This document shows, piece by piece, positions 13,231-34,599 of a DNA stretch of 61,627 nucleotides. The translations under genes were made by a program, and so were the position numbers. The notes beneath the pieces were generated by a model. That model had not been told where the DNA came from, ran no database searches, and saw only the letters and a list, made by a program, of their open reading frames with translations. Source of the stretch: Eubacteriales bacterium (lineage in GTDB: Bacteria; Bacillota; Clostridia; Oscillospirales; CAG-272); contig JAZNDN010000023.1 of the NCBI GenBank assembly GCA_045588085.1, positions 1 to 61,627 of the forward strand, given 5' to 3'. Position 1 is the stretch's first letter, and every line of letters begins with the position of its first letter.

Positions 13231-13231
13231 T

Positions 13232-14545: not shown

Positions 14546-14740
14546 AATTCCTCCAAAGGTTATAACTTCTTCTGCGCGGCATAAGTCGCACTTTGATTAC
14601 ACTACTATATTATCATATATATGTACTTATAACAAGGTTTTAAATTATGCAAAAAACTGTCCTAATTTAATGTCGAGTATTGATTTTTTTCGACTTTTAT
14701 GTTAAAATCGGAATAAAAGAATGATTTGCGGAGGAAAGCT

Positions 14741-15694: not shown

Positions 15695-15760
15695 AAGTAC
15701 CCCGTGTATCGATCTCGCTATGAGATGCGGTGCGCGGGGCGCTTTTTTATGTTGATTTGC

Positions 15761-17614: not shown

Positions 17615-17693
17615 AGTAATCCTCCAAAAATGTTGACATTCTGTTATTATTGTAGTATATTTTATATGTGAAAGCAATGAAAAAATAAAATAT

Positions 17694-18476
17694 ATGGTGG
17701 AAAAATCCGACATGATAACAGTAGATAATATAACGCTCGAATTTTCGAGCATGGGAATATTCGAAACAGATTCGGTGTGGATGCATCCTGACGTAACCGT
17801 TCCGACGTATGAAATCATCTACGTAACCGACGGTCAGGTCAACATAGCTGAGGGTGAGCAGCGTTATGAGCTCAAGCGCGGAGATATGCTTCTGCTTGAT
17901 GCCGGAATAAATCATCGGGGCTATGCCGCAAGTCACGGTAAAACGTCATTCTACTGGCTGCATTACACGGTTTCCGACGCAAAATCGCTCGCTTTTCCGA
18001 AGCTGTCGCGCCCTGAGTGTGCATGGGTGCTTGGTGCCCTGAGAGAGCTTATGCATTTGTCTATGGCGTCGCAAAGGCTTGCCGATATAGCTTTGGCGAA
18101 GCTGCTCTTTGAGTGTATTGAGGAGAGAAAGGCGGGCAATCCCGTAGCCCATGAGATAGACGAATATATAAGACTTAAGAGTGATACCGCGCTTACGGTT
18201 TCGCAGGTTGCACAGCGTTTCAGGCTCAGCGCTGACCATATAGCGAGGCTTTTGAAAAAGGAATTCGGTTACGATACTAAAACAGCAATAGTAAACCGCC
18301 GTCTTTTGTTTATAAAATCCTGTCTTGTAAATACGGATAAAACCGTCAAGGAGATTGCTGCGGAGTGCGGTTTTGAGGACGAAAATTCCTTTGTAAAATT
18401 CTTTAAGTATCATGAAAAAACCACACCAACAGCATTCCGCAGTAAATTCTTTTACGTAAATCGCAATAATAAGTAA
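17694..18476 (+). CDS. AraC-family transcriptional regulator
   Basis: Cupin-like N-terminus and C-terminal AraC HTH (ECGFEDENSFVKFFKYHEKTTPTAFR). Divergent from the GH127 gene. Promoter TTGACA-17-TATATT at about 17634-17662. Confidence 0.8.
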   Translation: MVEKSDMITVDNITLEFSSMGIFETDSVWMHPDVTVPTYEIIYVTDGQVNIAEGEQRYELKRGDMLLLDAGINHRGYAASHGKTSFYWLHYTVSDAKSLAFPKLSRPECAWVLGALRELMHLSMASQRLADIALAKLLFECIEERKAGNPVAHEIDEYIRLKSDTALTVSQVAQRFRLSADHIARLLKKEFGYDTKTAIVNRRLLFIKSCLVNTDKTVKEIAAECGFEDENSFVKFFKYHEKTTPTAFRSKFFYVNRNNK

Positions 18477-18482
18477 AATAAA

Positions 18483-18510
18483 AACGGGAGCCTGCTCATT
18501 GACTCCCGTT
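18483..18510. terminator. bidirectional terminator closing the microcompartment operon
   Basis: Stem AACGGGAG / CTCCCGTT with a 12-nt loop, between the convergent AraC gene and the last gene of the BMC operon. Confidence 0.5.
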
Positions 18511-18562
18511 CCCATTTGAAATCTATTTTACACCCCGGCGTATTGCTTCGGGAAATAAAATC

Positions 18563-19018
18563 TTATAATAAGTAATAAGGAAGATTGCCGCCGAGGTTTA
18601 TATATCCCTCGCCCTCGCGTAGTGCGCTATCGGTTGCGACTTCCTTCTTGGGCTCTGTCTTCTTGACGGAGCTTTTTTTTGCTGCTGTCGGCTTCTTTGC
18701 GATGGAGCTCTTGCTCTCTGCCTTCATAGTTGAAACCGCAGCCTTTGCTTTTGCAGTACGGCTTTGCTTTTTCTGTGCCTCGCTGACTTTTGTGTCGGTG
18801 GCTTTTTTTGATTTAGCGGCAACCTCGGAGGCGCGCTCCTTTGCTCTTGCAATGGCGGATTTGCCCTCGTCGGTTTTCGGTGTGAGGATTTTCTGCGTAT
18901 GCTCAGCAGCCTCGCCTATCAACGATATTTCACTGTTTTCCATATCCGGAGATGAGGTCTGAACCTTGGAATAACCGTTGTTAGTAACTCTTTTCAGTGA
19001 ATTTTTACCTATCGGCAT
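18563..19018 (-). CDS. lysine/alanine/serine-rich low-complexity protein (151 aa), candidate ParA partner/adaptor
   Basis: ATG 19018 preceded by AAAGGAGA inside the ParA 3' end, with a 14-nt overlap. Basic N-terminal peptide MPIGKNSLKRV. Long K/A/S/T/E-rich centre (AKSKKATDTKVSEAQKKQSRTAKAKAAV...AKKPTAAKKSSVKKTEPKKE). Short aromatic/hydrophobic C-terminus GEGYINLGGNLPYYLL. Confidence 0.65.
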   Translation of the reverse strand: MPIGKNSLKRVTNNGYSKVQTSSPDMENSEISLIGEAAEHTQKILTPKTDEGKSAIARAKERASEVAAKSKKATDTKVSEAQKKQSRTAKAKAAVSTMKAESKSSIAKKPTAAKKSSVKKTEPKKEVATDSALREGEGYINLGGNLPYYLL

Positions 19019-19796
19019 ACTTGATTATCTCCTTTGCAAGATTAATGTATTCCTTTGCACTTCTGCTGGCTTTCTTGTAGGCAACTACGGGCTGGCTGTT
19101 GTCCTGCGCCCATTCGATAGCACTGTCAACTCTGACGTAGGTTTCAAACAGACGTGCCGCCTCAAATTCCTTAAGGGTTTGCAGGGTTTGCTTGAAATAA
19201 TTTTTTCTTTCGTCTGCTTTGGTGATTGCAATACCCAAAACCTCAAGTCTTGGGTTGAGGTTTTTTACCTGCCCGAGAAAATCGAACATATTTGCTAAGC
19301 CGAAAAGTCCCCACGGACTCGCCTCAACCGGAATAACAACGTAATCCGAGGCGCACATTATGTTCATAACCCAGCCGCCAAGGGTGGGCGGTGAGTCTAT
19401 GAGTATGTAATCGTAATATCCGCCCGCGCGGCACCTCTCGAGGCACTTTTTAAGTATAAATTCGCGCTGCCACTTTGCAAAGAGCTCAAATTCAACGGAG
19501 CTCATAAGCGGGGAGGAGGGAATTATATCAAGTCCTTCGTATCCCGTCGGAGAAATGTAATCCGCGAGGTCGCGTTCCTCTTTTATTGCAGCGTATATAT
19601 TTTTTCCGTTCTCGGCAAATTCAAGAGCCTTTTCCTCGTCAAAGAAGGAAAGCGTCAGGTTCTGTTGCATATCGGCGTCAATAATAAGAACCCTTTTGCC
19701 AAAGGATGCAATAGCCGCACCGACGTTTCCGCAGGTGGTGGTTTTTCCGCTTCCGCCTTTGTTGTTGGCGAAGGCTATAACCTTAGTCTTGCTCAT
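19005..19796 (-). CDS. ParA/MinD-family P-loop ATPase (orphan, no ParB)
   Basis: Deviant Walker A FANNKGGSGKTT with the signature Lys, A' RVLIIDADMQ and Walker B YDYILIDSPP. 263 aa with no N-terminal HTH. RBS GGAGG upstream; 14-nt overlap with the eutP/pduV-like gene. Confidence 0.85.
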   Translation of the reverse strand: MSKTKVIAFANNKGGSGKTTTCGNVGAAIASFGKRVLIIDADMQQNLTLSFFDEEKALEFAENGKNIYAAIKEERDLADYISPTGYEGLDIIPSSPLMSSVEFELFAKWQREFILKKCLERCRAGGYYDYILIDSPPTLGGWVMNIMCASDYVVIPVEASPWGLFGLANMFDFLGQVKNLNPRLEVLGIAITKADERKNYFKQTLQTLKEFEAARLFETYVRVDSAIEWAQDNSQPVVAYKKASRSAKEYINLAKEIIKYADR

Positions 19797-20295
19797 TTTG
19801 AGTTACCTCCGTTGCCTCACTTTCGGTCTTGGTGCCGTGGCGTGTAGGCTTTTTAGTCTTTCTTTCGTCGTCCTCATTGAGAAATGCGATTATATCCGCG
19901 AGCCCCTCGCCCGTTACGGCGCTGACGGGGAAAATTCTCTTGCATCCGGCAAGCTTTAACCAGCGTGCAACTCTTTCGACGTTTGCATCCGGCTTGTCTA
20001 TTCCGGATATTATTCCGACAACCTCACGGTTGACAAGGCTCGTGATGCAGGGAGAGAAAATCGAATATGGCTCGTTTGCGCTTAAAACCAATCCTACGAC
20101 GTCTGCCTCGTAGGAATAAAGAGCTAAGGCACCGCTGGTCTGACGAAGCTCGGTGTATTCTCCGGGCGTGTCTATGACCGTGTCAAGATAATTGACGTAC
20201 TGCGTCTTGAAATAATGTATTTCCTCGCCGCGCAGAGCCTGAGTCAGAGTAGTTTTACCTGCGGCAACTCTGCCTATCAGAATAATCTTTTTCAT
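19783..20295 (-). CDS. pduV: EutP/PduV-family small GTPase with charged C-terminal tail
   Basis: MKKIILIGRVAAGKTTL P-loop and DTPGEY switch typical of EutP/PduV. Extra ~30-aa disordered tail (EDDERKTKKPTRHGTKTESEATEVTQNEQD). Confidence 0.85.
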   Translation of the reverse strand: MKKIILIGRVAAGKTTLTQALRGEEIHYFKTQYVNYLDTVIDTPGEYTELRQTSGALALYSYEADVVGLVLSANEPYSIFSPCITSLVNREVVGIISGIDKPDANVERVARWLKLAGCKRIFPVSAVTGEGLADIIAFLNEDDERKTKKPTRHGTKTESEATEVTQNEQD

Positions 20296-20296
20296 T

Positions 20297-20656
20297 TTAA
20301 GTACGTGTTATATCACAGCAGGTGTAGGCAAGCTTCGAGGTGAAATATTCTCTGATTGCCGCGAAGGCTGATTCAACCGAGGAAACGCTTCCCGATATAA
20401 TCAGAGTTCCGGTAAATCTGTCGACGAAGCCTATTTCCGCGCCCGAGGATTTTATTGCAATATCAGCGGTGATAACAGCGCTTTCTGCAGGGCTTATCGT
20501 AAGAACGCCTATCGCACTTCTGGTGTAATCGGTTTTAGGGTCAAGACCGAGCTTGGTGTAAAGAACGTCGTCGGGGTTTGCTATTATGTGGCAGAGCGTT
20601 ATCTGTTTACCGGGAACGAGCTCCTGCACTATTCTCATTTTATCTCTGAGTTCCAT
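20297..20656 (-). CDS. pduU: circularly permuted BMC-H shell protein (PduU/EutS type)
   Basis: ATG 20656 (track start 20722 over-extended). RIVQELVPGKQITLCHIIANPD...IGVLTISPAESAVITADIAIKSSGAEIGFVDRFTGTLIISG matches the PduU/EutS pattern. Confidence 0.8.
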   Translation of the reverse strand: MELRDKMRIVQELVPGKQITLCHIIANPDDVLYTKLGLDPKTDYTRSAIGVLTISPAESAVITADIAIKSSGAEIGFVDRFTGTLIISGSVSSVESAFAAIREYFTSKLAYTCCDITRT

Positions 20657-20691
20657 ATATTTTCCGCCTTTGTATAGTTTTGTGCGAGGGA

Positions 20692-21465
20692 TTAGCCTCC
20701 TATTTGTGCTCTTATGCCGCATTCCTCGGCTACGGAAAGAAGATACTCCATTCTTTCCTTTGAGGGAGGCTCAATCTCCTTCATCGAGTAATTTCTGCCG
20801 AGTCCGCGGTATTTATCGCTTCCGAGTCTGTGGTAGGGCAACAGATGATGCGCTTTCGCGCCGATGCTCTTTGCAAATTCGGATATTTTGCGGATATCCT
20901 CCGCGCTGTCGTTGAATTCGGGAATTACCGGCGTTCTGATAATAAGCTCTACTCCGCTTTTCGCCAGCTTTGCTGCATTTTCGAGAATAAGCTCATTAGG
21001 ACGTGCTGTGTATTCCCTGTGCTTGCCGCTGTCCATGTGCTTTATATCAAGTAAATATAAATCGAGGTAGGGAAGAAGCTTTTCTATTTCTGCATAGGGC
21101 AGTGAGCCTGCCGACTCAATTGCCGTATGAAGCCCTGCTGATTTGCATTCGCGAAGAAGCTCGGCAGCGAAATCCGCCTGACAGAGCACCTCGCCTCCGG
21201 AAAGCGTAACGCCTCCACCGCTTCGTCTGTAATAGGGGATATCGGCAAGTATTTCCGGCATTATCTCGTCAACCGTGACGTCGCGGCCTACGGTTTTTAC
21301 CTTGTCGCCTTCAGCCATGGTTTGTATCTCGTAATGCTGAGATTCCGGGTTGCAGCACCAAGCGCATCTCATAACGCAGCCCTTGAAGAATACTATGGTG
21401 CGGATTCCGGGGCCGTCGTGTATGGAAAAACGCTGAATATTGAATATTCTTCCTTGCCTTGCCAT
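20692..21465 (-). CDS. glycyl-radical enzyme activating enzyme (radical SAM, short PflA-like form)
   Basis: FSIHDGPGIRTIVFFKGCVMRCAWCCNPE (CxxxCxxC cluster) and GGGVTLSGGEV. 257 aa with no ferredoxin-like Cys-rich insertion. Confidence 0.9.
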   Translation of the reverse strand: MARQGRIFNIQRFSIHDGPGIRTIVFFKGCVMRCAWCCNPESQHYEIQTMAEGDKVKTVGRDVTVDEIMPEILADIPYYRRSGGGVTLSGGEVLCQADFAAELLRECKSAGLHTAIESAGSLPYAEIEKLLPYLDLYLLDIKHMDSGKHREYTARPNELILENAAKLAKSGVELIIRTPVIPEFNDSAEDIRKISEFAKSIGAKAHHLLPYHRLGSDKYRGLGRNYSMKEIEPPSKERMEYLLSVAEECGIRAQIGG

Positions 21466-21518
21466 AAGCGCTTCCTTTCCTTGAATTTTAAATCCTGCTA
21501 TTCCTGCTTTGTTATCGG

Positions 21519-24050
21519 TTACCAGCCCTGTTCAGTACGGTTTATAATATCATTCTGAAGCGAGCGGGAAAGAGTTGTAAAGAGTGCAGAGTATCCCGCG
21601 ACTCTGACAACCAGAGTCTTATACTTTTCGGGATTTTGCTGAGCGTCGAGAAGAGTTTCCTTCGTAACGACGTTAAACTGAACGTGCATACCCTTCTGGT
21701 CGAAATACGAGCGTATCAGTGCAACGAATTTTGAAAGTCCTGCCATTCCTTCCAAAGCGGAGGGGTGGAATTTCTGATTTAGAAGCGTTCCGTTAGAGGC
21801 AACTGCCTGTTCGAGCCTTGCAACCGAGTTTGCGGTAGCGGTAGGACCCTTGACGTCTCTTCCGGAGGCGGGGCCTATTCCGTCAGCGAGGGGTGTGTAT
21901 GCGAGTCTGCCGTCGGGAGTTGCTCCCGTGGTTGCTCCGAGAGGAACGTTTGCCGAAACGGGATAAAGTCCTGCCTGATATATTCCTCCGCGGGGATTCT
22001 TATATTTTTCTATCTCTCTTGTGTAGGTGTTCGCAACCTCGCGAGCGAGCATATCTGCCTCGTAAATATCGTTTCCGTACTTGGGGCATTCATCCTCAAT
22101 GAGTCTTTTGATTTCACGGTAACGCATCTTAAGACCGTTATCAAGAGAGCTAGCCGTGGTAACCTCGTCGTAGATGATTTTAATTATCTGCTCCGTAAGA
22201 GGAGTTCCGCCTTTGACAAGACCCTCGGCAATTTCTGCGGTCACCTTCATCGCCGCATCACCGCTGAGTCCGTAGCCGAAATTCGCTGAAAGTGCATCGC
22301 GAAGCTCCGCCATGCTGACACGACCCTCGTCAAATACAAGCTTCTTTATTGCAAGAAGCGCATCGGCATTGTTTGCGATTCCAAAGCCCTGAGGTCCGGT
22401 AAAGTTATACACGGCTCCGCCCTCTTGCAGAGATTTGCCGCGGCCGATACAGTCGTCAACCATGCAGGACTGGAAGGGAAGCGGGCATCTTGCAGCGTGG
22501 GCTGTGTCAATAGCGTTTATTGAGTTGACGAGGAGCTTTATCATATAGCTCTGCTGAGCCTTGTAAGCCTCGAAGAACTGCTCAAAGGTTTTGAATTCGG
22601 TTACGTCTGCGGTTTCAGGTCCTATTTGAACGCCGCGGCTCATGCCGCTTGAGAAAACGAGCTCAATGGGACGGCACATATTGAAGAATGCAGCATCGTG
22701 CCAGCCGTCCGTCTTTGCCGCCTTCTGAGGCTCTACACAGCCTATGATACAGTAATCTCTTGCGTCCTCAAGAGACAGGCCGCGTGCCATAATCGAGGGG
22801 ATTATGATTTCGTCGTTGTAGTAAGCGGGAAGACCGGTTCCAAGTCTTGTCAGCGCACTCGCCTTGATAAGAAAGTCCTCGGGAGAGCCGTTCCAGACTC
22901 TTACCGAAATAGAGGGCTGAGGGAGCGGAACGTGCATAGATGCCTCAAGGCACATATACGAGAGGTCGTTTGTGGCGTCCATGCCGTAGGAATTCTGACC
23001 GCCGACTATCAGGTTCTGGAACATACCGTAGCCTGCAAAGCCGTTTGCGGAATCGGCATCTCTTACTTTGTTTATGTCGTTGAGCTTAACCCAAACGCAG
23101 TCGATAAGCTCCTGCGCCTGCTCAAGCGTGATAGCTCCCTTTTCCATATCGGACTTGTAGAAGGGATACATATACTGGTCAAAACGGCCGGGAGATATTG
23201 AGTGACCGCTGGATTCAATCTGAAGAAGGAGCTGAATGAACCAGAATGACTGGCAAGCCTCGTGGAAGCTCGTTGCGGGGAATTCGGGAACTCTGAGGCA
23301 ATTCTTGGATATTTTCATAAGCTCCTCGCGGCGAACGGGGCACTTTTCCGCATCTGCAAGCTCGCGTGCAAGCTTTGCATATCTGTGCGCGTACTCGCAA
23401 ACCGCCTCGCAGCTTTCGATAACTGCTTCAAGGAAATTGCTTCTCTGAGTGTATTCCGGGTCGGCAAAGTCGAGCTTGTCAAGAGCCTCTGTTGCCTCGG
23501 CAATAATTCCTCTGTATCCTTTTTTCAGAACCTTGGGATAGTCAACGCAAACGTGGCCTATTCCGTTATAGAAATAGTTACCCGGCGTGTATACCGCGTG
23601 AGTTGCGAATGCCTCGTACGCTTCGGGAGCCATGTTGGACTTAGCTAAGTCAGAACAGGTTTTCCCGTGCCACCAAGGGTATATTTCACGAAGCTGTGCT
23701 TTCGTTTTTTCGCTTATATAGAAGGGGTCTGCCGTACGGGTGGAAACGGTATCAAGCTCTCCAAGAAGCCACTCGTATGAGTATTCGGGGAAAACCTGAC
23801 AGCCGCGAGGAGCGCGGCTCGCACTTCCGACAATCAGCTCGCCGGGTCTTATAGTAATCGGAATGTTTCTGAGAATATGAGCAAAAGCTGCGCTTCTGCG
23901 CTTTATTACAGGGAGATTTTCCGTGAGCTTGTAGCTTTCGGTAATTAGAATACCGCGGTCAGCTTCAATTTCGGGCATCTTCTCATAAAGATGATCGATA
24001 AGCTTGGATATTCTTTCGCTCTTTTCTATTACAAATTTTATATTTTCCAT
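21519..24050 (-). CDS. glycyl radical enzyme, diol-dehydratase class (probable B12-independent 1,2-propanediol dehydratase)
   Basis: PFL2/glycerol-dehydratase-like fold. Catalytic GCVEP loop (YCIIGCVEPQ) and C-terminal glycyl radical motif VVRVAGYSALF. Substrate is inferred from aldolase/rhamnose context only. ATG 24050 preferred over GTG 24059. Confidence 0.75.
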   Translation of the reverse strand: MENIKFVIEKSERISKLIDHLYEKMPEIEADRGILITESYKLTENLPVIKRRSAAFAHILRNIPITIRPGELIVGSASRAPRGCQVFPEYSYEWLLGELDTVSTRTADPFYISEKTKAQLREIYPWWHGKTCSDLAKSNMAPEAYEAFATHAVYTPGNYFYNGIGHVCVDYPKVLKKGYRGIIAEATEALDKLDFADPEYTQRSNFLEAVIESCEAVCEYAHRYAKLARELADAEKCPVRREELMKISKNCLRVPEFPATSFHEACQSFWFIQLLLQIESSGHSISPGRFDQYMYPFYKSDMEKGAITLEQAQELIDCVWVKLNDINKVRDADSANGFAGYGMFQNLIVGGQNSYGMDATNDLSYMCLEASMHVPLPQPSISVRVWNGSPEDFLIKASALTRLGTGLPAYYNDEIIIPSIMARGLSLEDARDYCIIGCVEPQKAAKTDGWHDAAFFNMCRPIELVFSSGMSRGVQIGPETADVTEFKTFEQFFEAYKAQQSYMIKLLVNSINAIDTAHAARCPLPFQSCMVDDCIGRGKSLQEGGAVYNFTGPQGFGIANNADALLAIKKLVFDEGRVSMAELRDALSANFGYGLSGDAAMKVTAEIAEGLVKGGTPLTEQIIKIIYDEVTTASSLDNGLKMRYREIKRLIEDECPKYGNDIYEADMLAREVANTYTREIEKYKNPRGGIYQAGLYPVSANVPLGATTGATPDGRLAYTPLADGIGPASGRDVKGPTATANSVARLEQAVASNGTLLNQKFHPSALEGMAGLSKFVALIRSYFDQKGMHVQFNVVTKETLLDAQQNPEKYKTLVVRVAGYSALFTTLSRSLQNDIINRTEQGW

Positions 24051-24097
24051 AATATTCACTCTCAGCTTTCGTATGTAAATATTTCAGGCAGTCAGAA

Positions 24098-24643
24098 TTA
24101 CATCTGCTCCCAAAGGTCTTTGTGCGGTGCCGGAATAACCGTGGAGGAGGAAAGCGTTGCCAGCTCCATAGCGTATGCAGCTCCCGCTTCAACAGCTGCG
24201 GTAACGTCACCTACGTCACCGGTCAGCATTATAACTCCCTTTCCGCCCATTCCGCGAGAAACTCTGAGGTCGTATATAGCAACTCTTGCGGTCTTGACAG
24301 CAATATCAGCCGCCTTGATTGCGCTTGCGGCAGAGAAGGTTTCGATAAGGCCGAGAGAGCCGACCTTTTCTCCGGTGCTTGTGCCGAAAAGCGCCTTTAT
24401 AACCTGCTCGTCTATCCGTCCCATAACCGATGCGTCTATCACGTATCCCTCAAATTTCGACTGAACGTGACTTACTGCGGCGCTTACGTCGGAAATAGAG
24501 CCGGTGAGTATTATTTCGTATTTTCCGGGGCAAGCCGGGTGAGCGGAAACCATGTCAATTCCCGCGCTTTTGAGCGCGGCATCGGCTGCCTCAACTCCCT
24601 TCGGTATGCTTTTGAGTTCAATTACTCCTATCGACCTATACAT
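24098..24643 (-). CDS. pduT: tandem-domain BMC-T shell protein (PduT-like)
   Basis: Two BMC domains in 181 aa (IGVIELKSIPKGVEAADAALKSAGI... and LGLIETFSAASAIKAADIAVKTARV...). Cys in HPACPGKY sits at the position of the PduT Fe-S ligand. Confidence 0.8.
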   Translation of the reverse strand: MYRSIGVIELKSIPKGVEAADAALKSAGIDMVSAHPACPGKYEIILTGSISDVSAAVSHVQSKFEGYVIDASVMGRIDEQVIKALFGTSTGEKVGSLGLIETFSAASAIKAADIAVKTARVAIYDLRVSRGMGGKGVIMLTGDVGDVTAAVEAGAAYAMELATLSSSTVIPAPHKDLWEQM

Positions 24644-24691
24644 TATTAAAATCCTCTGTAACAGTATTTATGGCTATTATACTTTCTGAAA

Positions 24692-26005
24692 TCAGTTTGC
24701 ACTTATTGATATCCTGTCGCCAAGGTGGCGTACGGTACCGCTGATTGATGCGTGCTGTGCAACCGAAAGTCCGTCTGCTGCCTGAGCTATGACGTCTCCC
24801 ACCGTAACCGTCTGTAAGTCAGATACGGCCGGAACACTGGGAATTCCTATATGCCTTGCAAGCGGAATTTCGACGTAATTAAAATCGGATATTCTCCCAA
24901 TATACTCGGCAACCGTGTCAAATCTTGCAACTCCGAGAACCTCTGCCCATTTGCGAGAGGGGATTCTTCTGTAATCTCTTTCGGGGGCGGGGCGCACCTG
25001 CTCTTCGGAGATGTATCTTATCTTGTTTTCCCTAAGAAGCGCCTTGTAGTTGTTTATAACAGCTTTTGGCGATATGCCCTGAGAGCATGCGAGGTTTTCG
25101 CATATTCCGCATCCGCAGCACAGCGTTGCGCTTATGACCATTTTGGGCATAAATTTCGCAGCGCCCATTGCGGTTCTTACCATTTTGTGCGGCTCGAGGG
25201 GGTATCCGAGAAGATTTCTCGGGCACATATCGGTGCATCTTGTACACTGGCAACAAGCGGTTTCGGCTCTCGCGACCGCCATTTTTTCGTTTATAAGCTT
25301 AGACTCTATTGCCCTTGAGGAGTCCGGGAGAACGAGAAGCCCCTTCGTCGTTTTTGTGACGGTTGCGCGTGCAGGGTTGATTATCTTTCCCATAGAGGGT
25401 CCGCCGTCTATAACCGAGTGTCCGTCGGGAACCGTGATTCCAAGTCTTGAAAACAGCTCAGATACGCGAACTCCGACGGGAACCTTTACTACCACGGGCT
25501 TGTCAACGTTGCCGCCGACGGTGAGCCACTTTTCGCTGACGCATTCACCGTATCTTATGCGTCTGCCTAGGTTGTACATTGTTTCAACGTTGTAAACTAT
25601 GACACCGACGGAAATCGGAAGCTTTCCCGGCTGTACCGTACGGCCGAGCGCTTCGTGTATAAGGCTTATTTCGTCACCCGTAGGGTAAACGTTGCCCAGA
25701 ACCTTTACACGAACTCTTTCGGAAAGGGATTCTCCGTTTGAAAATCCGAGTCTTTTCGCCGTATGCTCCTTTACCGACAGCATCGCGGTGGGAATATTGA
25801 GCTCGTCGAGAACCGCCTCAATTCCGGTTATTACCATGTCCGGCTCGTTTTTGAGTATGATGTAATCCGTGTAAAGAAGAGGCTCGCATTCGGCACCGTT
25901 TATAAGGAGGGTATCTGCCCCTCCTGCAAGCTTTGCATAAGAGGGGAACCCGGCGCCTCCGGCACCAACGATGCCTGCATCTCTCATTATGTAACTGAGT
26001 TCCAT
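24692..26005 (-). CDS. pduS: PduS/RnfC-like flavin and Fe-S oxidoreductase
   Basis: AGIVGAGGAGFPSY nucleotide-binding motif, SLBB-like middle region and two 4Fe-4S motifs (CCQCTRCTDMCP, CCGCGICENLAC). Confidence 0.8.
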   Translation of the reverse strand: MELSYIMRDAGIVGAGGAGFPSYAKLAGGADTLLINGAECEPLLYTDYIILKNEPDMVITGIEAVLDELNIPTAMLSVKEHTAKRLGFSNGESLSERVRVKVLGNVYPTGDEISLIHEALGRTVQPGKLPISVGVIVYNVETMYNLGRRIRYGECVSEKWLTVGGNVDKPVVVKVPVGVRVSELFSRLGITVPDGHSVIDGGPSMGKIINPARATVTKTTKGLLVLPDSSRAIESKLINEKMAVARAETACCQCTRCTDMCPRNLLGYPLEPHKMVRTAMGAAKFMPKMVISATLCCGCGICENLACSQGISPKAVINNYKALLRENKIRYISEEQVRPAPERDYRRIPSRKWAEVLGVARFDTVAEYIGRISDFNYVEIPLARHIGIPSVPAVSDLQTVTVGDVIAQAADGLSVAQHASISGTVRHLGDRISISAN

Positions 26006-26052
26006 CTTATTATCCTTTTGTTCTTTGGTGTGCGCTGATGCCGCTTGTTATC

Positions 26053-26301
26053 TTAGTCAACGATACCGACGATAACTGCATCTGCGGGGGCGTTTGTGTT
26101 GTGGAGCGCAAGTCTTGCAGAGCTTCCGGTGGTGACGAGAACCGTCTCACCTATTCCTGCGCCGACGCTGTCTATGGCGATTATAAACTTATCGGTAAGC
26201 ACGCCGTTTTCTATAAGCTGCAGCTCCATGAATTTACTTCCGACAAGAGCATCCTGCTTTCTTGTGGAAACGATGTTTCCTCTGATAATACCCTTTAGCA
26301 T
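26053..26301 (-). CDS. pduN: BMC-P pentameric vertex protein (EutN/PduN/CcmL family)
   Basis: 82 aa; GNIVSTRKQDALVGSKFMELQL...IAIDSVGAGIGETVLVTTGSSAR matches the EutN/CcmL pattern. Confidence 0.85.
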   Translation of the reverse strand: MLKGIIRGNIVSTRKQDALVGSKFMELQLIENGVLTDKFIIAIDSVGAGIGETVLVTTGSSARLALHNTNAPADAVIVGIVD

Positions 26302-26330
26302 ATCAAATCTCCTTAATAGAATAATTCTTT

Positions 26331-27005
26331 TCAGTCGGCAACCTTGACTCTGAAGCCGTTTCCGATTCCGCAGGCGTTTGCATCGTCGGTGTCTATGTGC
26401 ATCTCAAGTCTGAAATCCTTATGAACTCTGACCTGAACGTCGTAAAAGCGCGTTTTTCTTTTGCCGAGGACGTCAATGGTGAGCGTGTCACCGTCATTTA
26501 CGGAGAAAACCTTAGCGTCGTCGGGTGACATGTGGATGTGTCTGTTCGCTATAATGCAGCCCTCGGAGAGCTCAACAACGCCCTTGGGACCTATGATTGT
26601 GATAGGTGCTGAGCCTGCAATGTTTCCGGACTCTCTGACGGGAGGCTTAACCTTGAGAACGTAGGAGTCGGTTGCGGAAATTTCAACCTGAGAGGTACGT
26701 CTTACAGGACCCAGAACTCTGACGTTTTCAATAGGACGAAGCGAGGGCCCCACTATTGTGAGCAGCTCTTTGCATGCGTACTGTCCCGGCTGGGAGAGGT
26801 CCTTTATGGGTGTCAGCTCGTAGCCGCTTCCGAAAAGAGTTTCAAGGTCAGCTTTTGAAAGATGAATATGTCTGTTTGACACACCGACGGGAATTCCGTC
26901 CTCCTTCGATGCGGACACGGTGGGCTCAGCCGCACTTCCAACCGTTCCCATTCCTGAGATAACCTTTGCGACAAGCTCCTTTATAAGCTCCTTTGAGTAT
27001 TCCAT
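26331..27005 (-). CDS. pduL: phosphate propanoyl/acyl-transferase PduL with N-terminal encapsulation peptide
   Basis: Duplicated PduL motifs GVSNRHIHLSKADLETLFG and ANRHIHMSPDDAKVF. The first ~20 aa (EYSKELIKELVAKVISGMG) form an amphipathic helix followed by an A/S/T-rich linker. Confidence 0.9.
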   Translation of the reverse strand: MEYSKELIKELVAKVISGMGTVGSAAEPTVSASKEDGIPVGVSNRHIHLSKADLETLFGSGYELTPIKDLSQPGQYACKELLTIVGPSLRPIENVRVLGPVRRTSQVEISATDSYVLKVKPPVRESGNIAGSAPITIIGPKGVVELSEGCIIANRHIHMSPDDAKVFSVNDGDTLTIDVLGKRKTRFYDVQVRVHKDFRLEMHIDTDDANACGIGNGFRVKVAD

Positions 27006-27093
27006 AGTATATCCTTTCTTCAGGCAATTGCGGAATTTGATACACGCCTCATGCCTATACCTTAATTTCTTGGTTTATATCCGACGGTATTAT

Positions 27094-27160
27094 GCCGAGG
27101 GAAAGCCGAATAAGCTTCGGCTCTCTCTCGGCATCCGAAGACCCGAGGGCCTTCGGATGC
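27094..27160 (-). other. two adjacent GC-rich hairpins in the shell-gene/pduL intergenic spacer
   Basis: GCCGAGGGAAAGCCGAA-TAAGC-TTCGGCTCTCTCTCGGC (27094-27132) and GCATCCGAAG-ACCCGAGGGC-CTTCGGATGC (27131-27160). No U-run follows on the coding (minus) strand. Confidence 0.55.
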
Positions 27161-27200
27161 CGCCGCCTTCTGCAAGCTATCAAGAATTAATTTATCTTAA

Positions 27201-27473
27201 TTACTTGATGGAAGGAAGAAGCTTCTCAACGTCTGCATGAGGTCTGGGGATTACGTGAGTTGCGATAACCTCACCAAGAGAGGTTGCAGCAGCGGAGCCT
27301 GCTTCAACAGCAGCCTTAACTGCACCAACGTCGCCACGAACCATAACGCTTACAAGTCCGCTACCGATTTTCTCACTGCCGATAAGAATAACGTTAGCAG
27401 CCTTAACCATAGCGTCTGCAGCCTCGATAGCAGCAACAAGTCCTCTTGTTTCAATCATACCAAGTGCTTCCAT
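27201..27473 (-). CDS. pduA: BMC-H hexamer shell protein (PduA/PduJ type), copy 1
   Basis: [28 protein letters not shown]...[23 protein letters not shown], the canonical BMC-H sequence. Confidence 0.9.
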
Positions 27474-27569
27474 GTTAAAATCCTCCTATAGATTTTTATT
27501 TTTTGCTTTTGCTTTTGATAATTATTTATTTCAAAGCGAGACGCGTGCCTTCGCCTTAAAAACTGAGTG

Positions 27570-27842
27570 TCAGCCCGTTGTCAGAAAAGCCATAACATCG
27601 GGATGCGGGCGTGCGATTACCTCGCAGCACTTAACATTACCGACTTCCTTTGCAGCCGCAGCTCCTGCATCAAGAGCCGCTCTTACTGCGGAAACCTCGC
27701 CTTCGACGACTACTGTAACCAGTCTGCCGCCGAGGCGTTTTTCCACGTGAATAAGCTTTACGTCGGCTGCTTTAACCATAGCGTCGAGTCCTGCAATTGC
27801 GGCAACCATAGCCTGCACTTCAAGTAACGCTATTGCCTTCAT
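27570..27842 (-). CDS. divergent BMC-H shell protein with arginine-containing pore loop
   Basis: BMC fold (IALLEVQAMVAAIAGLDAMVKAADV). The pore loop reads EKRLGGRLV instead of EKIGSGLV, and there is a CC pair near the C-terminus (NVKCCEVIARPH). Confidence 0.8.
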   Translation of the reverse strand: MKAIALLEVQAMVAAIAGLDAMVKAADVKLIHVEKRLGGRLVTVVVEGEVSAVRAALDAGAAAAKEVGNVKCCEVIARPHPDVMAFLTTG

Positions 27843-27858
27843 ACCATAAATCCTTTAA

Positions 27859-28134
27859 TTACTTTATGATAGGAAGAAGCTTCTCAACGTCTGCGTGAGG
27901 TCTGGGGATTACGTGAGTTGCGATAACCTCGCCAAGAGCCGTAGCAGCTGCAGAGCCTGCGTCAACAGCAGCCTTAACTGCTCCAACGTCTCCGCGAACC
28001 ATAACGCTTACGAGTCCGCTACCGATTTTTTCGCTTCCGATAAGTACGACGTTTGCCGCCTTAACCATAGCATCTGCAGCCTCGATTGCTGCAACAAGAC
28101 CTCTGGTTTCTACCATTCCGAGTGCTTCCATCAT
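27859..28134 (-). CDS. pduA: BMC-H hexamer shell protein (PduA/PduJ type), copy 2
   Basis: Protein nearly identical to copy 1 apart from a few conservative substitutions and the C-terminal residues. DNA roughly 85 percent identical by eye. Confidence 0.9.
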
Positions 28135-28169
28135 TGTTTGATTTCTCCTTTAAATATAAATTATTATTA

Positions 28170-28487
28170 TTATCTTAATTTGTCTTTACCGAGGGCAGAA
28201 AGTCTTGCGAACCATTCTATATCCTCGCTTTGCCTTGCAATTACCTTGTGGGTAATGTAAAGCTCTCTTTTTTCGGCTTCCGCGCGGCCGGCAGCTACGC
28301 TTGCCTCAACGGCAGCGGCAGAGCCCTCCACCTTGATTGCCATAACGAGAGGCACGCGGGCAGAGTCACCTGCGGCAGGCTTATTCTTGTCTATTGCGAC
28401 AACCTTTACGTCAGCCGCCTTTGCCATAGCATCGGCAACTACTATTGCCGTCGCAAAGCCGAATACCTCTATCATTCCAAGTGCCAT
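28170..28487 (-). CDS. BMC-H shell protein variant with pore-loop insertion and C-terminal extension
   Basis: ALGMIEVFGFATAIVVADAMAKAADVKVV, then an inserted loop DKNKPAAGDSARVPLV. C-terminal tail RQSEDIEWFARLSALGKDKLR. Confidence 0.8.
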   Translation of the reverse strand: MALGMIEVFGFATAIVVADAMAKAADVKVVAIDKNKPAAGDSARVPLVMAIKVEGSAAAVEASVAAGRAEAEKRELYITHKVIARQSEDIEWFARLSALGKDKLR

Positions 28488-28498
28488 AGCAGTGCTCC

Positions 28499-29701
28499 TT
28501 ATTCAGCAACGTAGCAAATCTTGATGCCCTGCTGAGAAACGTTTACCTCCATAGCCTCGTTGAGCTTGTCAAGCGGGAAGGTGTGCGTTATAAGGTCCTT
28601 GATAGGAATGTTCATCTCTCTTGCTTGGCGAAGGAATGCCATAGTAGTGGGATAATCATCGGCGCTGTAATCCCAGGAGCCAACGATATTGATTTCCTTG
28701 TTGCACATAGCAAAGTGAGGATTTACTGTGTATTCACCGTTGTTGACGAAGAAGCCCATTTCGCAGAGTCCGCCACCGCGGCGAATGTATTCGTAAATGT
28801 CCTTGGCTGCAGCCGGTGCGCCTGTGCACTGGAATGCGAAGTCAGCGCCAACGCCGTTTGCTGCATTCTTAACTATCTTAACGCGGTCCTCAAGGCTTGT
28901 GACCTCCTTGAAGCTGATAACGGTTTTTGCACCGAGCTTCTTTGCCATTTCAAGTCTTTTGGGAGCACCGTCGATAGCGATAATGTGGTTAATACCGGCA
29001 GCTCTGAGAACCGATATCATAACAAGACCTACGGGGCCAAGACCCTGAACGAGAACCTTGGAGTTGAAGTTCATAAGTCCGGTAGTGTTTGCACGCTTAA
29101 GAGCGTGAACGCAAACGCAGGCAAGCTCAAGAATCATTCTTTCCTTAAGGTCGAGGTCGTTAACCACAAAGTAAGTAGAGCCCTTTCCTCTTATGAGAAG
29201 GTGTGTTGCAAACCAACCGGTAAGGGGATTTGCATCGTTGTGAGGAATAAGACCGAATACGCCCTGCTTGTCGCAAAGGTTTGTATTCGCGGGCTGGTTG
29301 CGGCAGATATAGCAGTCACCGCAGCTGATAACGCTGGTAACTATTTTATCGCCAACCTTGATAGGATTTCCGGCGGTATCCTTTTTGATATTTTTTCCGA
29401 GAGCGATTATCTCACCGGTGCCCTCGTGACCCAGAGTAACCGGCATAATGCCGAAGGGGTCTGCTCGCCATTCGTGAACGTCGGTGCCGCAAACTCCGCA
29501 GCCTTCAACTCTGACGAGAATATCGTCGTCCTGAAGAGCGGGAATCGGGTACTCTTTTACCTCGATTTTCTTGGTTGCGGTAAGGGTTGCAACCTTTGCG
29601 GTCTTAGGAATTTCACGCGAGCCCTGGCAGCATCCGCTACCCGAAAGCTCTCCGAGTATCTTGCGGACGATGCTTTCAACCTGAGATTGATTAATACTCA
29701 T
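28499..29701 (-). CDS. zinc-dependent (MDR family) alcohol dehydrogenase with N-terminal encapsulation peptide
   Basis: GHEGTGEI catalytic Zn motif, structural Zn Cys cluster (CGDCYICRNQ...C) and Rossmann VQGLGPVGL. N-terminal SINQSQVESIVRKILGELSGSG helix. ATG 29701 has RBS AAAGGAA; ATG 29722 is an alternative start. Confidence 0.8.
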   Translation of the reverse strand: MSINQSQVESIVRKILGELSGSGCCQGSREIPKTAKVATLTATKKIEVKEYPIPALQDDDILVRVEGCGVCGTDVHEWRADPFGIMPVTLGHEGTGEIIALGKNIKKDTAGNPIKVGDKIVTSVISCGDCYICRNQPANTNLCDKQGVFGLIPHNDANPLTGWFATHLLIRGKGSTYFVVNDLDLKERMILELACVCVHALKRANTTGLMNFNSKVLVQGLGPVGLVMISVLRAAGINHIIAIDGAPKRLEMAKKLGAKTVISFKEVTSLEDRVKIVKNAANGVGADFAFQCTGAPAAAKDIYEYIRRGGGLCEMGFFVNNGEYTVNPHFAMCNKEINIVGSWDYSADDYPTTMAFLRQAREMNIPIKDLITHTFPLDKLNEAMEVNVSQQGIKICYVAE

Positions 29702-29718
29702 TTTTAAATTCCTTTCTG

Positions 29719-31179
29719 TCATATAATGCGGAAGTTGTCAACCATTACGCAGCGGCGAAGCCTGGTGAAGCTCTTGGCGCTGGTGATACCCTCACCGGTA
29801 GGTCCGGCAATCGTAAAGGTGGTGTGTCCCTCACCGCCGAAGCCTATGCCTGCATAGGAAGGTGCATTCTTTACGAAAATTGTGGTTTCAACCGCGCGGG
29901 CAAAGCGCGTAAGGTGGTCAATATTTTTGGAATGCATATGAGCCGTGTGTCTGTTTCCGTGCTCCGCCTTAACGGCAAGGTCAATAGCCGTGTCAATATT
30001 ATCAACTCTGACTATCGGAAGAATGGGCATCATAAGCTCATGCTGAACGAAGGGGTGCTCAAATTCCGTCTCGCATATAATGCAGCGAATTTCAGAACCT
30101 ACCTTAATTCCGATTTTATCAAGAAGAACTCTCGCATCACGTCCTACGCAATCGCGGCTGACGGTTTTTGAGATAACACCGGTCTTGGGGTTCTTCTTGT
30201 CTACGAGAACTATCTCGGCAAGCCTTGCAGCCTGCTCCTTCGAGATAAGATAAGCACCGTTTTTCAGCATAGCGTCTATAAGCTCGTCTGCAATGCTTGC
30301 AAATGCAAATACCTCTTTTTCCGCGATACAGGGAAGATTGTTATCGAAGGAGCATCCGTCGATTATATCCTTGCCTGCTTTTTTGATATCTGCGGTATCG
30401 TCAACGATAACGGGGGGATTTCCCGCACCGGCACCGATAGCCTTCTTTCCGCTGGAGAGAACGCTTTTTACAACACCGGGTCCGCCCGTGCAAACCAGAA
30501 GTCTTATACTGGGATGCTTATACATTACGTCTGCCGATTCGAGAGTGGGCTTGGCAACCGAAGCCACGAGAATGTCGGGGCCGCCGGCCATAGCGCTCGC
30601 GCGGTTGACGAGGTCAACTGCATAGTTCGATGTTGAAATAGCTCCGGGGTGGGGGTTGAAAACAACTCCGTTGCCGGCTGCTATCATTCCGATGCTGTTG
30701 CATATAACAGTTTCGGATGGGTTGGTTGACGGAGTGATGCTTCCGACTACGCCAAACGGCGCCATTTCGGTAAGCGTAAGTCCGTCGTCACCTGTTTTAA
30801 CCTGCGATACGATGTCTGATGTTCCGGGTGTCTTATCTGCAACGAGCATGTGCTTCGCCGTTTTGTGATCGACTCTGCCCATCTTCGTTTCGGCAACGCC
30901 CAGCGCCGCCATGATGGGAGCCTCCTCACGAGTCAGCTCGCGGATCTTGGCAATGATTTTTTCTCTTTCAGCCAAGGTCATAGCGCGCACTGCACGGTAT
31001 CCCGCACCTGCGGCGTCGATAGCATCGCGCATATCCTCGAAAACACCAATCAATTTGCGTCCGTTATAGGAAGTAGAATTCCATTCACCGATTTTTGCGG
31101 CGGGTACGCTCGTACCGAGGCTCTTCAAAACCGAGGATACGATATTCTGTATATCGGCCTCTGTCCAATTAATAGCCAT
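29719..31179 (-). CDS. pduP: CoA-acylating aldehyde dehydrogenase (PduP/EutE type) with N-terminal encapsulation peptide
   Basis: ALDH fold with catalytic Cys region (FDNNLPCIAEKE). N-terminal WTEADIQNIVSSVLKSLG amphipathic helix. Confidence 0.85.
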   Translation of the reverse strand: MAINWTEADIQNIVSSVLKSLGTSVPAAKIGEWNSTSYNGRKLIGVFEDMRDAIDAAGAGYRAVRAMTLAEREKIIAKIRELTREEAPIMAALGVAETKMGRVDHKTAKHMLVADKTPGTSDIVSQVKTGDDGLTLTEMAPFGVVGSITPSTNPSETVICNSIGMIAAGNGVVFNPHPGAISTSNYAVDLVNRASAMAGGPDILVASVAKPTLESADVMYKHPSIRLLVCTGGPGVVKSVLSSGKKAIGAGAGNPPVIVDDTADIKKAGKDIIDGCSFDNNLPCIAEKEVFAFASIADELIDAMLKNGAYLISKEQAARLAEIVLVDKKNPKTGVISKTVSRDCVGRDARVLLDKIGIKVGSEIRCIICETEFEHPFVQHELMMPILPIVRVDNIDTAIDLAVKAEHGNRHTAHMHSKNIDHLTRFARAVETTIFVKNAPSYAGIGFGGEGHTTFTIAGPTGEGITSAKSFTRLRRCVMVDNFRII

Positions 31180-31228
31180 TTTCTATCTCCTTCTTTTGCA
31201 AATTCAGAAAACGATTTGTAAAAGGGAA

Positions 31229-31978
31229 TTATTTGCCGAGCGCTGCAAGAACTCTCTTGGTAATCTCTTCAACGAGAGCCTCGGTGTTCTGGCATGCGGG
31301 CTTTTCTTCCTCAAGGTCAAGACCGGGATGACGTCCGGGAAGATTCATCTTCTTGCGCAGATCCATAAGCTTCTTGAGCTGCTCGTTGGGAATTTCATGA
31401 ACCGCACCGAGCTCCATAGCGTTCTTGCATATCTTAGCGTTGAACTCAACCTCTTCCATAACGAACTGAGCCTTGGTGAGAGTGCAGCCAACGGTAAGTG
31501 CACCGTGGTTCTTAAGAAGGAACGCATCGTGATTCTGAATGTAGGGCTCAAGAGAATCGGGAATTTCCATAGTGGAGGGAGTACCGTATTCGCAGGTGGG
31601 AACCTCACCTATGGTAAGAACTGCCTCGGGAAGAATGTACTGGTCGAGGTTTACGCCTGCAAACGTGAAAGCGGTAGCAACAGGGGGATGAGCGTGAACA
31701 ACCGCGTTAACGTCGGGACGCTCTTTGTAAACACGCATGTGCATCTTGATTTCCGACGAAGGATTGAGCTTTCCTTCAATCTTGTTGCCGTTCTCGTCAA
31801 CCTTGATGATCATGTCGGGAGTGAGGTCACCCTTCGATACGCCGGTAGGGGTGCAGTAATACTCGCGTTCGGAAATTTTAACCGATATATTACCGTCGTT
31901 TGCTGCTACGAAGCCGAGATTGTAAAGCTTATGACCGACTTCGCAGATTTCCTTTTTGATTTCAAATGGAGATTTCAT
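31229..31978 (-). CDS. class II aldolase (L-fuculose/L-rhamnulose-1-phosphate aldolase family) with C-terminal extension
   Basis: GNISVK...PTGVSKG...VVHAHPP metal-binding pattern of FucA/RhaD-type aldolases. An extra ~35-aa tail ends in TEALVEEITKRVLAALGK. Confidence 0.8.
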   Translation of the reverse strand: MKSPFEIKKEICEVGHKLYNLGFVAANDGNISVKISEREYYCTPTGVSKGDLTPDMIIKVDENGNKIEGKLNPSSEIKMHMRVYKERPDVNAVVHAHPPVATAFTFAGVNLDQYILPEAVLTIGEVPTCEYGTPSTMEIPDSLEPYIQNHDAFLLKNHGALTVGCTLTKAQFVMEEVEFNAKICKNAMELGAVHEIPNEQLKKLMDLRKKMNLPGRHPGLDLEEEKPACQNTEALVEEITKRVLAALGK

Positions 31979-32017
31979 TTTTCTTTTTCCTTTCGGTTTT
32001 TTATTTTTATTTTAATT

Positions 32018-34141: not shown

Positions 34142-34446
34142 TTCGGTGATTTCACCGAATGAAAATTATTTTCATTTTCTGTCGGAATTTATATCGAATA
34201 TTTGACAAAAATGAAAATCAATTTCGAAATTAATGAAAATTACTTTCACAATTAGGATTTTATCACAAATTTCCATAAATGTCAACACTTTTTTGGAAAA
34301 ATTTTCGATTTTTTTGTTTTTCTAAATATTTAAAATATTTTATATGTAAGGCGCAAAATAAAACGGCAGAAAGCGGATTTTTGAAAAATATTTTCATTTT
34401 TTCGAAAAATACCGTGAAAAAAGTGAAAATTTGAAAATAATTTTCG
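34142..34446. promoter_or_regulatory. cluster of operator-like palindromes in the 490-bp AT-rich intergenic region
   Basis: TTCGGTGA-TT-TCACCGAA (34142-34159). TGAAAAT-N-ATTTTCA type sites at 34160-34174 (perfect), 34212-34226, 34234-34248, 34382-34396 and 34432-34446, plus extra GTGAAAA half-sites at 34413-34430. Confidence 0.5.
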
Positions 34447-34579: not shown

Positions 34580-34599
34580 AAAAGAAAAAGGGGTTTTTT

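Follow-up and report, generated by a model that had tools for sequence, protein, structure and literature searches.

A ParA-type ATPase and its predicted disordered partner at the end of a glycyl-radical microcompartment operon: a candidate positioning system in uncultured Clostridia

What does a ParA-type ATPase do at the very end of an operon for a catabolic microcompartment? The question is posed by a stretch of 61,627 nucleotides (nt) from an Eubacteriales bacterium (contig JAZNDN010000023.1 of assembly GCA_045588085.1), hereafter the window, where a microcompartment operon on the minus strand ends with three overlapping genes. These encode a small GTPase of the PduV/EutP family (19783..20295; 170 amino acids (aa), with a charged C-terminal tail of 30 aa), a deviant Walker A ATPase of the ParA/Soj type, here referred to as ParA (19005..19796, 263 aa), and a protein of 151 aa that is predicted to be intrinsically disordered (18563..19018), hereafter the partner or adaptor. 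A first-pass annotation had read these three open reading frames (ORFs), whose coordinates and common strand the ORF listing confirms, as a positioning module for the compartment, with a McdA-like ATPase and a McdB-like adaptor. McdAB is the only tested positioning system, and it serves carboxysomes. We argue here, with some reserve, that the ParA and the partner probably form a system analogous to McdA/McdB that is dedicated to a glycyl-radical microcompartment (GRM); the analogy rests on gene order, on the architecture of the partner family and on the motifs of the ATPase.

The ParA-partner unit and its linkage to the operon

A scan of one genome per species with the partner yielded 134 matches, of which 80 loci were taken; they come from gut and rumen metagenome-assembled genomes labelled Clostridia, Eubacteriales, Oscillospiraceae or Candidatus Scatosoma. 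In all 80, ParA lies directly upstream of the partner and overlaps it, by 14 nt in 70 loci and by 26 nt in ten. The combination that the first-pass annotation had made the object of a neighborhood survey, a ParA gene with a small disordered ORF, indeed recurs at the glycyl-radical microcompartment operon throughout this set: shell genes are present in each of the 70 loci that have at least 2.5 kb of upstream sequence, and a glycyl-radical enzyme in each of the 62 that have at least 7 kb. A linkage of ParA and partner in which the overlap is kept in every locus is far beyond chance. The ten loci with the longer overlap (e.g. ATGCCAATCGGAAAGAACGCAATTAA) make up a sub-group in which the ParA is 267 aa long.

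PduV stands upstream of ParA in 76 of the 80 loci, the remaining four being cut by the end of a contig. The overlap of these two genes is most commonly 4 nt (31 of 76) and measures 14 nt in four loci. In one locus (L060; the L numbers denote the related loci), an unrelated gene of 383 aa (1159-2310) separates PduV from ParA, and in another (L078) the same place is taken by the gene for a 201-aa protein with a hydrophobic N-terminal segment, possibly a signal peptide (881-1486); the ParA-partner overlap is intact in both. Since these two loci have a gene inserted between PduV and ParA, the fixed unit consists of the ParA and the partner. On the other side, the conserved block ends with the partner, because none of the window genes downstream of it recurs in the 80 loci. 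Thus, the trio proposed as a positioning module stands only in part: the ParA-partner unit is conserved, whereas PduV, placed after a PduU/EutS-type shell gene, is how such operons ordinarily end, so that the conserved add-on comprises two genes and not three.

In the window itself, PduV and ParA overlap at 19783-19796 (ATGAGCAAGACTAA) and ParA and the partner at 19005-19018 (ATGCCGATAGGTAA), both on the minus strand; both overlaps are 14 nt long, as had been reported, but their sequences differ, so that the earlier description of them as identical holds for the length only. The internal ribosome-binding sites described at the same time are indeed there, namely GGAGG at 19806..19810 (minus strand), inside the PduV coding sequence and 9 nt before the ATG of ParA at 19796, and AAGGAG at 19029..19034 (minus strand), inside the ParA coding sequence and 10 nt before the ATG of the partner at 19018. 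An ORF of 125 aa that runs antisense within the partner gene (18585-18962, plus strand) most likely owes its existence to the low complexity of that coding sequence; it was rejected because the minus-strand frame is kept across the 80 species, with both conserved ends of the partner in frame.

The ATPase and its partner

The ParA matches the Pfam families AAA_31 (9e-52) and CbiA (8e-18) and displays the signature-lysine P-loop, the A' motif (motif 2) and the Walker B aspartates of the ParA/MinD superfamily, the motifs being NNKGGSGKTT at residues 11-20 (KGGSGKT at 13-19, with the signature Lys13), DADMQ at 40 and LIDSPP at 132. Among solved structures it is nearest to the chromosomal M. xanthus ParA (8RAY; 4.9e-35 over residues 5-259) and next to Soj proteins, and the similarity to the McdA-like protein of the cyanobacterium Cyanothece (6NON) is weak (5e-14). 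Because it aligns end to end with the small Soj-type ParAs (M. xanthus and T. thermophilus structures), it has no N-terminal helix-turn-helix (HTH); a small ParA with the signature lysine, the A' and B boxes and no such domain is just what the first-pass annotation had described. It stays below every NCBIfam equivalog cut-off, the best sub-threshold matches being partition ATPases. Two other identities were considered and rejected: a membrane-targeting helix, as the protein ends where Soj and M. xanthus ParA end, and an iron-sulfur (Fe-S) carrier, the resemblance to which is limited to the P-loop. Across 77 species the ParA is 67-80% identical.

One arginine, R197, prevails at its position in at least 90% of 78 ParA sequences. 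Its aligned counterpart in M. xanthus ParA and T. thermophilus Soj is the Arg of a conserved D-x-R stretch, and we take the position of R197 to be that of the DNA-binding R189 in Soj of B. subtilis. In M. xanthus, the central Arg/Lys of the ParB peptide is received by ParA residues Y81, E82, D110 and E117. In the printed alignment, Y81 and E117 correspond to Y68 and E104 of the ParA described here, which are both conserved, whereas A69 and L97 stand in place of E82 and D110. The contact and DNA-binding residues would thus, as we infer from the alignments, map only in part onto the sites of M. xanthus ParA and Soj.

The partner has no match in Pfam or NCBIfam. Its 195 detectable homologues are all metagenomic or from uncultured Clostridia, and the closest of them, 93% identical, is located on short ENA contigs. 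A profile search that covered 1.84 billion representatives gave 289 clusters at 50% identity; in the best 150 of these, the match starts at residue 1 and the lengths range from 72 to 201 aa, the longest member found in the related loci bringing the family range to 72-203 aa. Outside the conserved ends, identity drops to 30-44%. The three-part build proposed earlier for this protein is real, with the proviso that the two conserved ends are longer than had been noted: the N-terminal one comprises 29 aa, the C-terminal one about 17 aa.

The N-terminal part (residues 1-29, MPIGKNSLKRVTNNGYSKVQTSSPDMENS; 18932..19018, minus strand) is presumed to be the peptide that binds ParA and activates its ATPase. 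Its family consensus, MPIGKNxIKRVxNNGYSKVxxxAPDMENS, is near-invariant: M1, P2, G4, K5, R10, G15, P24, D25, M26 and S29 do not vary in 70 partner sequences, the basic residues K5, K9 and R10 are conserved in the family, and 256 of 259 family sequences begin with M-[P/A/S]-[I/V]-G-K. The pattern I3-G4-K5...I/L8...V11 resembles the motif with which ParB binds ParA, L-G-R-G-L-x-x-L-I; if this likeness is meaningful, I3, A/S7, I/L8 and V11 would share one face of a helix, with K5 at the position of the ParB arginine.

The middle of the protein is a linker rich in K, A, S, T and E (residues 30-134; 18617..18931, minus strand), for which the predicted local distance difference test (pLDDT) values are mostly below 55. 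In 81 sequences its length varies from 26 to 157 aa, its composition is 24% K, 18% A, 11% P and 10% E, and its median net charge is +8, with values down to 0 in some members. The C-terminal part (residues 135-151, REGEGYINLGGNLPYYLL; 18566..18616, minus strand), presumed to be a shell-docking tail, follows the consensus G-x-G-Y-x-N-L-G-G-x-[L/M]-P-x-[Y/H]-L-L. Two leucines close the protein in 250 of 259 family members, and a proline occupies position -5 in 249 of these 250; at position -3 there is Y in 194, H in 43, W in seven and F in five. The partner in the window ends with LPYYLL, having Y at both -3 and -4. An aromatic residue lies within the last five positions in 65 of the 81 genome-derived members, the remainder having His there. 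Accordingly, the aromatic C-terminus pointed out in the first-pass annotation is usual but not invariant, with His at -3 in 43 of 250 sequences, and the invariant part is the terminal P-x-x-L-L.

The partner is predicted to be unfolded or intrinsically disordered. Its AlphaFold2 model (70 sequences) has a pLDDT of 60 and a predicted template modeling score (pTM) of 0.20, and contains only short helices: one at residues 5-12 and two more, at 33-45 and 50-69, in a stretch that is missing from most homologues. A folded ribbon-helix-helix (RHH) or HTH protein, which had been named beforehand as the outcome that speaks against positioning, is not what the model presents: no RHH, HTH or other DNA-binding domain and no strand-helix-helix unit was found in it. 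Likewise, the partner does not look like the type Ib centromere-binding RHH proteins (ParG/omega), its residues after position 30 being conserved neither in sequence nor in length, and searches of Pfam and NCBIfam detected neither the N-terminal (CTPase) domain nor the HTH domain that mark ParB, the type Ia centromere-binding protein.

The PduV tail and the setting of the operon

The GTPase gene that precedes the pair passes the thresholds of its family models: it scores 168.6 bits (9e-50) against PduV-EutP of Pfam (PF10662; cut-off 21) and 141 bits against EutP/PduV of NCBIfam (TIGR02528; cut-off 138.35). Its tail in the window ends with ...TQNEQD, without a W-L-L ending. In 21 of the 76 relatives, PduV carries instead a tail of about 45 aa, rich in K, P and T, that ends with L-[D/E/Q]-T-[W/Y]-L-L, mostly LDTWLL (the loci include L019, L023, L026, L028, L039, L041, L054, L060 (637-1149), L061, L068-L073, L075 and L077). 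When the ending [LMIVF]-x-x-[WYFH]-L-L-stop was searched for in the 3186 ORFs of at least 60 aa from the 80 loci and the window, 102 matches were obtained, 81 of which are partners and 21 PduV; no other gene family in this set has it. The acidic-plus-Trp character of the PduV tail also resembles the Trp-acidic motif that has been discussed for McdB.

A PduV tail of the same kind as that of the partner suggests a shared docking site. As two different proteins carry the same kind of tail, it may be viewed as a peptide with which both dock on one surface, the simplest choice being the shell. PduV is co-translated with the ParA-partner pair; given the tail that it bears in some relatives, it is probably on the same surface. 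One may go further and suppose that hydrophobic-x-x-[W/Y/H]-L-L-COOH on a K-rich tail is a portable outer-surface tag, used by the adaptor of ParA and also, in roughly one species out of four, by PduV, so that the ATPase ratchet and the GTPase would compete for, or share, one site on the shell; we put this forward as a tentative idea that may well turn out to be wrong. Analysis of covariation of the partner positions -3, -4 and -6 with the columns of 13 operon proteins made no shell protein stand out: the top covarying columns fall in the PduS-like protein, which is the most variable one, and the signal is indistinguishable from shared phylogeny.

In Salmonella, PduV has been reported to reside outside the Pdu shell, bound to PduU (PMC4315436). 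The gene order is alike in the two cases, in that the gene for an EutS/PduU-type shell protein directly precedes PduV, but the PduV-PduU contact of Salmonella has been assigned to the N-terminus of PduV, whereas the 21 relatives considered here add a K-rich C-terminal tail of the LDTWLL type. Furthermore, unlike the locus described here, the Salmonella Pdu operon encodes no ParA.

According to the ORFs of the window and their Pfam matches, the minus strand from 33208 down to 18563 forms one long operon. Its larger part (20692..33208) starts with genes for acetate kinase, a class II aldolase, aldehyde dehydrogenase and a Zn-alcohol dehydrogenase, continues with four BMC-H shell proteins, PduL, a BMC-P pentamer protein, a PduS-like flavoprotein and BMC-T, and ends with the glycyl-radical enzyme (846 aa) followed by its activase; the 3' end of the operon consists, in this order, of the EutS/PduU-type shell gene, the PduV/EutP GTPase, ParA and the 151-aa partner. 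The shell gene (20297..20656, about 119 aa; Pfam BMC, 4.9e-11) scores 102 bits with the EutS model of NCBIfam, which is under the cut-off of 123. The BMC-domain ORF as such extends over 20297-20722 (141 aa), and its start is probably the internal Met at 20656, because the alignments with homologues cover just 84% of the long version; the short version matches EutS over the full model, and the long one would overlap the activase gene. Behind the partner, the operon is closed by an intrinsic terminator (18476..18517, minus strand) with a stem of 17 pairs, six of them G-C, followed by TTTTTATTTT; this terminator had been placed by the first-pass annotation at 18483-18510, so that its presence holds and its limits are shifted.

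The aldolase together with the glycyl-radical enzyme is the published signature of the fucose/rhamnose type GRM5. As the operon has both of these, along with the activase, shell proteins of the H, T and P classes and the core of aldehyde dehydrogenase, PduL and alcohol dehydrogenase, we classify it, by gene content, as a GRM5-like (rhamnose/fucose) glycyl-radical microcompartment locus with a predicted substrate assignment. Rhamnose-related genes flank its 3' end in the window, namely L-rhamnose isomerase (11992-13230) and an FGGY sugar kinase (13232-14545), along with AraC-type regulators (14726-15694 and 17694-18476) and a GH127 glycosidase (15761-17818); no gene of this flank (11992-18476 in the window) was seen behind the partner in any of the 80 related loci. 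The second of the AraC-family genes is convergent with the operon and comes after its terminator.

Upstream, the operon is preceded by an RpiR regulator; between this and a HAD hydrolase, at 34263-35241, there are two ORFs, one of 101 aa (minus strand) and one of 213 aa (plus strand), that match nothing in Pfam. Two large adjacent ORFs, of 666 and 758 aa, at 41979-46177 (plus strand) also lack a Pfam match at E <= 1e-5. Toward its ends, the window contains a BspA-type leucine-rich-repeat protein (586-2205, minus strand) and a protein with a PBECR4 (phage barnase/EndoU/colicin-like) nuclease domain (60243-60878, minus strand).

Positioning and the alternatives

The idea that ParA-type ATPases serve metabolosomes is not new. 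Axen 2014 already mentioned that microcompartment loci can contain ParA genes; section 2.9 of MacCready 2021 (PMC8359340) describes McdA/McdB-like genes next to PDU and GRM operons, with Tyr replacing the C-terminal Trp, and Fig. 4 of Basalla 2024 (PMC11321042) presents PDU/GRM-associated McdB-like proteins with a conserved Tyr/Phe. Reviews and preprints up to 2026 list McdAB-like positioning of metabolosomes as lacking an experimental test. The first-pass annotation was therefore right that no experimental demonstration for a catabolic compartment is to be found in the literature searched, but the idea itself had already been published from sequence. As far as those two descriptions go, the partner fits in with such non-carboxysome McdB-like proteins: it lies beside a GRM operon, and its LPYYLL end has Tyr within the last four to five residues. 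The pair is, accordingly, a well-defined instance of an already predicted kind rather than a new kind; what is new here is the LDTWLL-type tail on PduV, the N- and C-terminal motifs of the partner family and the synteny count over 80 genomes.

Among the tested systems, a close parallel is that of H. neapolitanus, where, too, a ParA with the signature lysine is encoded in the organelle operon and is followed by a small, near-fully disordered partner (the disorder being predicted in our case). The first 20 residues of the H. neapolitanus McdB suffice to bind McdA, with K7 being critical, and its last 10 residues suffice for reaching carboxysomes. A basic N-terminal helix with a key lysine for the ATPase contact, comparable to K7, would be present in our partner as well, and a short C-terminal shell-binding motif, which has been shown for H. 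neapolitanus McdB, can be proposed for it. The differences are no less clear. The cargo is a catabolic glycyl-radical compartment of anaerobic Clostridia, the C-terminal motif is [L/M]PxYLL-COOH as opposed to the R(V/I)WPD, with invariant Trp, of the H. neapolitanus-type alpha McdB, and no sequence similarity between the partner and H. neapolitanus McdB was detected. With the beta-McdA/McdB of S. elongatus, the pair would share the logic of a ParA plus an adaptor acting on the nucleoid; Type 1 beta-McdA, however, has no signature lysine, which the ParA described here keeps, and beta-McdB is an oligomer-forming protein with a coiled coil, whereas our partner has no conserved helical core. Finally, the ParA of M. 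xanthus has the same Walker motifs, with the Tyr and one Glu of the site for the ParB Arg/Lys being kept here and the I-G-K start of the partner resembling L-G-R/K of ParB, but E82, D110 and R238 of M. xanthus ParA are not conserved, no ParB (HTH, CTPase, parS) is involved, and the cargo would be a protein shell and not DNA.

The partner has the features published for McdB: it is small, is encoded directly after ParA, has a basic N-terminus and a composition biased to K, A and P, and is predicted to be disordered. The ParA, in turn, fits what is expected of an McdA, since it is encoded in a microcompartment operon with the adaptor gene next to it in 80 of 80 loci, the compartment being a GRM and not a carboxysome. 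Given that the invariant Trp is absent and that no sequence similarity is detectable, we term the partner functionally McdB-like and do not count it in the McdB family. By analogy, the following cycle can be envisaged. Dimers of ATP-bound ParA would coat the nucleoid non-specifically, while the adaptor would dock on the outer shell with its [L/M]-P-x-[Y/H]-L-L-COOH end; the K-rich linker would let the N-terminal 29-aa peptide (helix 5-12; K5, K9 and R10) reach ParA and stimulate ATP hydrolysis. Each compartment would thereby clear ParA locally and climb the remaining ParA gradient in the manner of a Brownian ratchet, so that the compartments would be kept apart along the nucleoid and passed to both daughter cells. 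In this scheme, the gene structure, the architecture of the family, the linkage to the operon, the canonical ParA motifs and the prediction of adaptor disorder are matters of observation; the binding of ParA to DNA, the two contacts of the adaptor and the positioning that would result are what we infer from them.

Several points weigh against this interpretation. The literature searched contains no experiment on a ParA system of any catabolic compartment, and the Pdu compartments of Salmonella are spaced without any ParA, so that such a system is not a general requirement; a 2026 study found heterologous McdAB, the native ParA and MinD to be without effect on the positioning of the Salmonella Pdu compartments. 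The C-terminal Trp that is invariant in carboxysome McdB is found at position -3 in just seven of 250 family members. The ParA is nearer to chromosomal ParA/Soj (4.9e-35) than to the cyanobacterial McdA-like protein (5e-14), and its Ala226 aligns with R238 of M. xanthus ParA, the mutation of which abolishes DNA binding. Covariation between the adaptor C-terminus and the shell did not rise above the phylogenetic background among the 13 operon proteins. The linkage comes from one clade and one conserved operon and represents far fewer than 80 independent events, and the source organisms are uncultured.

Which other functions could the pair have? In the main rival view, the partner might itself be a direct tether to the nucleoid, binding it through the K/A/P-rich center while the C-terminus holds the compartment and the ParA only modulates or releases the contact. 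Histone H1-like tails and the granule protein PhaM are known to bind DNA, and PhaM tethers polyhydroxybutyrate granules; the composition of the center (24% K, 18% A, 11% P, median net charge +8) is of this sort, and three partner homologues score against the histone-H1-like HC2 family of Pfam (PF07382). Yet a center that ranges from 26 to 157 aa and whose charge falls to 0 is easier to understand as a spacer than as a binding domain, an N-terminus that hardly varies and a gene that is strictly coupled to ParA point to the ParA contact as the core function, and the H. neapolitanus McdB alone binds no DNA, all of which makes direct tethering look rather unlikely to us. We would attach still only small weight to the view that the pair acts in biogenesis or against aggregation at the shell surface, for instance through adaptor condensates and without the nucleoid, or that it delivers the compartment to some other site in the cell. 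McdB proteins do form condensates and their loss causes aggregation, the adaptor is low-complexity and charged, as is typical of condensate formers, and ATPases of the ParA/MinD type position many kinds of cargo; but this ParA has no C-terminal extension for a membrane-targeting helix, aligning as it does to the very ends of Soj and M. xanthus ParA, and it keeps R197, aligned with the Arg of the D-x-R stretch, so that this option, too, appears quite improbable.

Plasmid partition systems of type Ib typically combine a small ParA with a small partner, and the best sub-threshold NCBIfam matches of our ParA are to partition ATPases, from which one could conclude that the pair is a DNA-partition module, relic or active, of a mobile element or plasmid carrying the operon, with the partner as the centromere-binding protein. 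We consider this very improbable. No homologue of the partner was found among 72,556 plasmids or 50,697 phages, so that the pair is not plasmid-borne; a search for centromere-like repeats in 17800-21600 revealed no array, only short chance matches of two or three copies; no ParB-type gene is present among the 45 ORFs of the window that were scanned; and a folded RHH or HTH domain is missing from the partner model. Neither do these 45 ORFs include origin-type genes, the remainder of the window being ordinary chromosome with lysyl-tRNA synthetase, GreA, PrmA, RibF and RNase III. On each of these points, the absence of ParB and of repeats as well as the position away from an origin, the first-pass annotation proves to be correct. 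Moreover, in 80 species with different flanks the pair is translationally coupled to the 3' end of a metabolic operon. It is just as hard to believe that the ATPase serves the Fe-S proteins of the operon (the activase or the PduS-like protein) in maturation or cluster delivery, as a factor of the Mrp/NBP35 or CooC type would. Pfam PF10609 (NUBPL iron-transfer P-loop NTPase) does match the ParA at 2.8e-10, and there are weak matches to MrpORP and ApbC, but all of these, mainly confined to the P-loop, are far weaker than those to AAA_31 (9e-52) and to the ParA/Soj structures, and nothing in such systems corresponds to a disordered partner whose N-terminal peptide is ParB-like.

Taken together, the absence of the partner from plasmids and phages, the linkage to the operon, the predicted lack of a fold and the absence of repeats and of ParB mean that the positioning interpretation of the ParA-partner pair has come through the computational tests that could have refuted it, and it is supported to that extent. 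Being tied so firmly to one operon in no fewer than 80 gut species, the two-gene module offers a clean test case, in which a presumed ATPase-contact peptide of 29 aa and a C-terminal tag of six residues can both be fused, deleted or transplanted; these peptide motifs and the link to PduV make the positioning of catabolic compartments directly testable. Should the module do nothing to positioning, the published generalization of McdAB to metabolosomes would need revising. The shared tail, for its part, yields a concrete hypothesis for the PduV GTPase: if it is indeed a common tag, it would tie PduV to a defined positioning machine and would provide a ready-made surface-display tag for engineered compartments. 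Finally, as the compartments are predicted to process fucose and rhamnose in gut anaerobes, the way in which they are inherited bears on the production of propionate and propanol in the gut.

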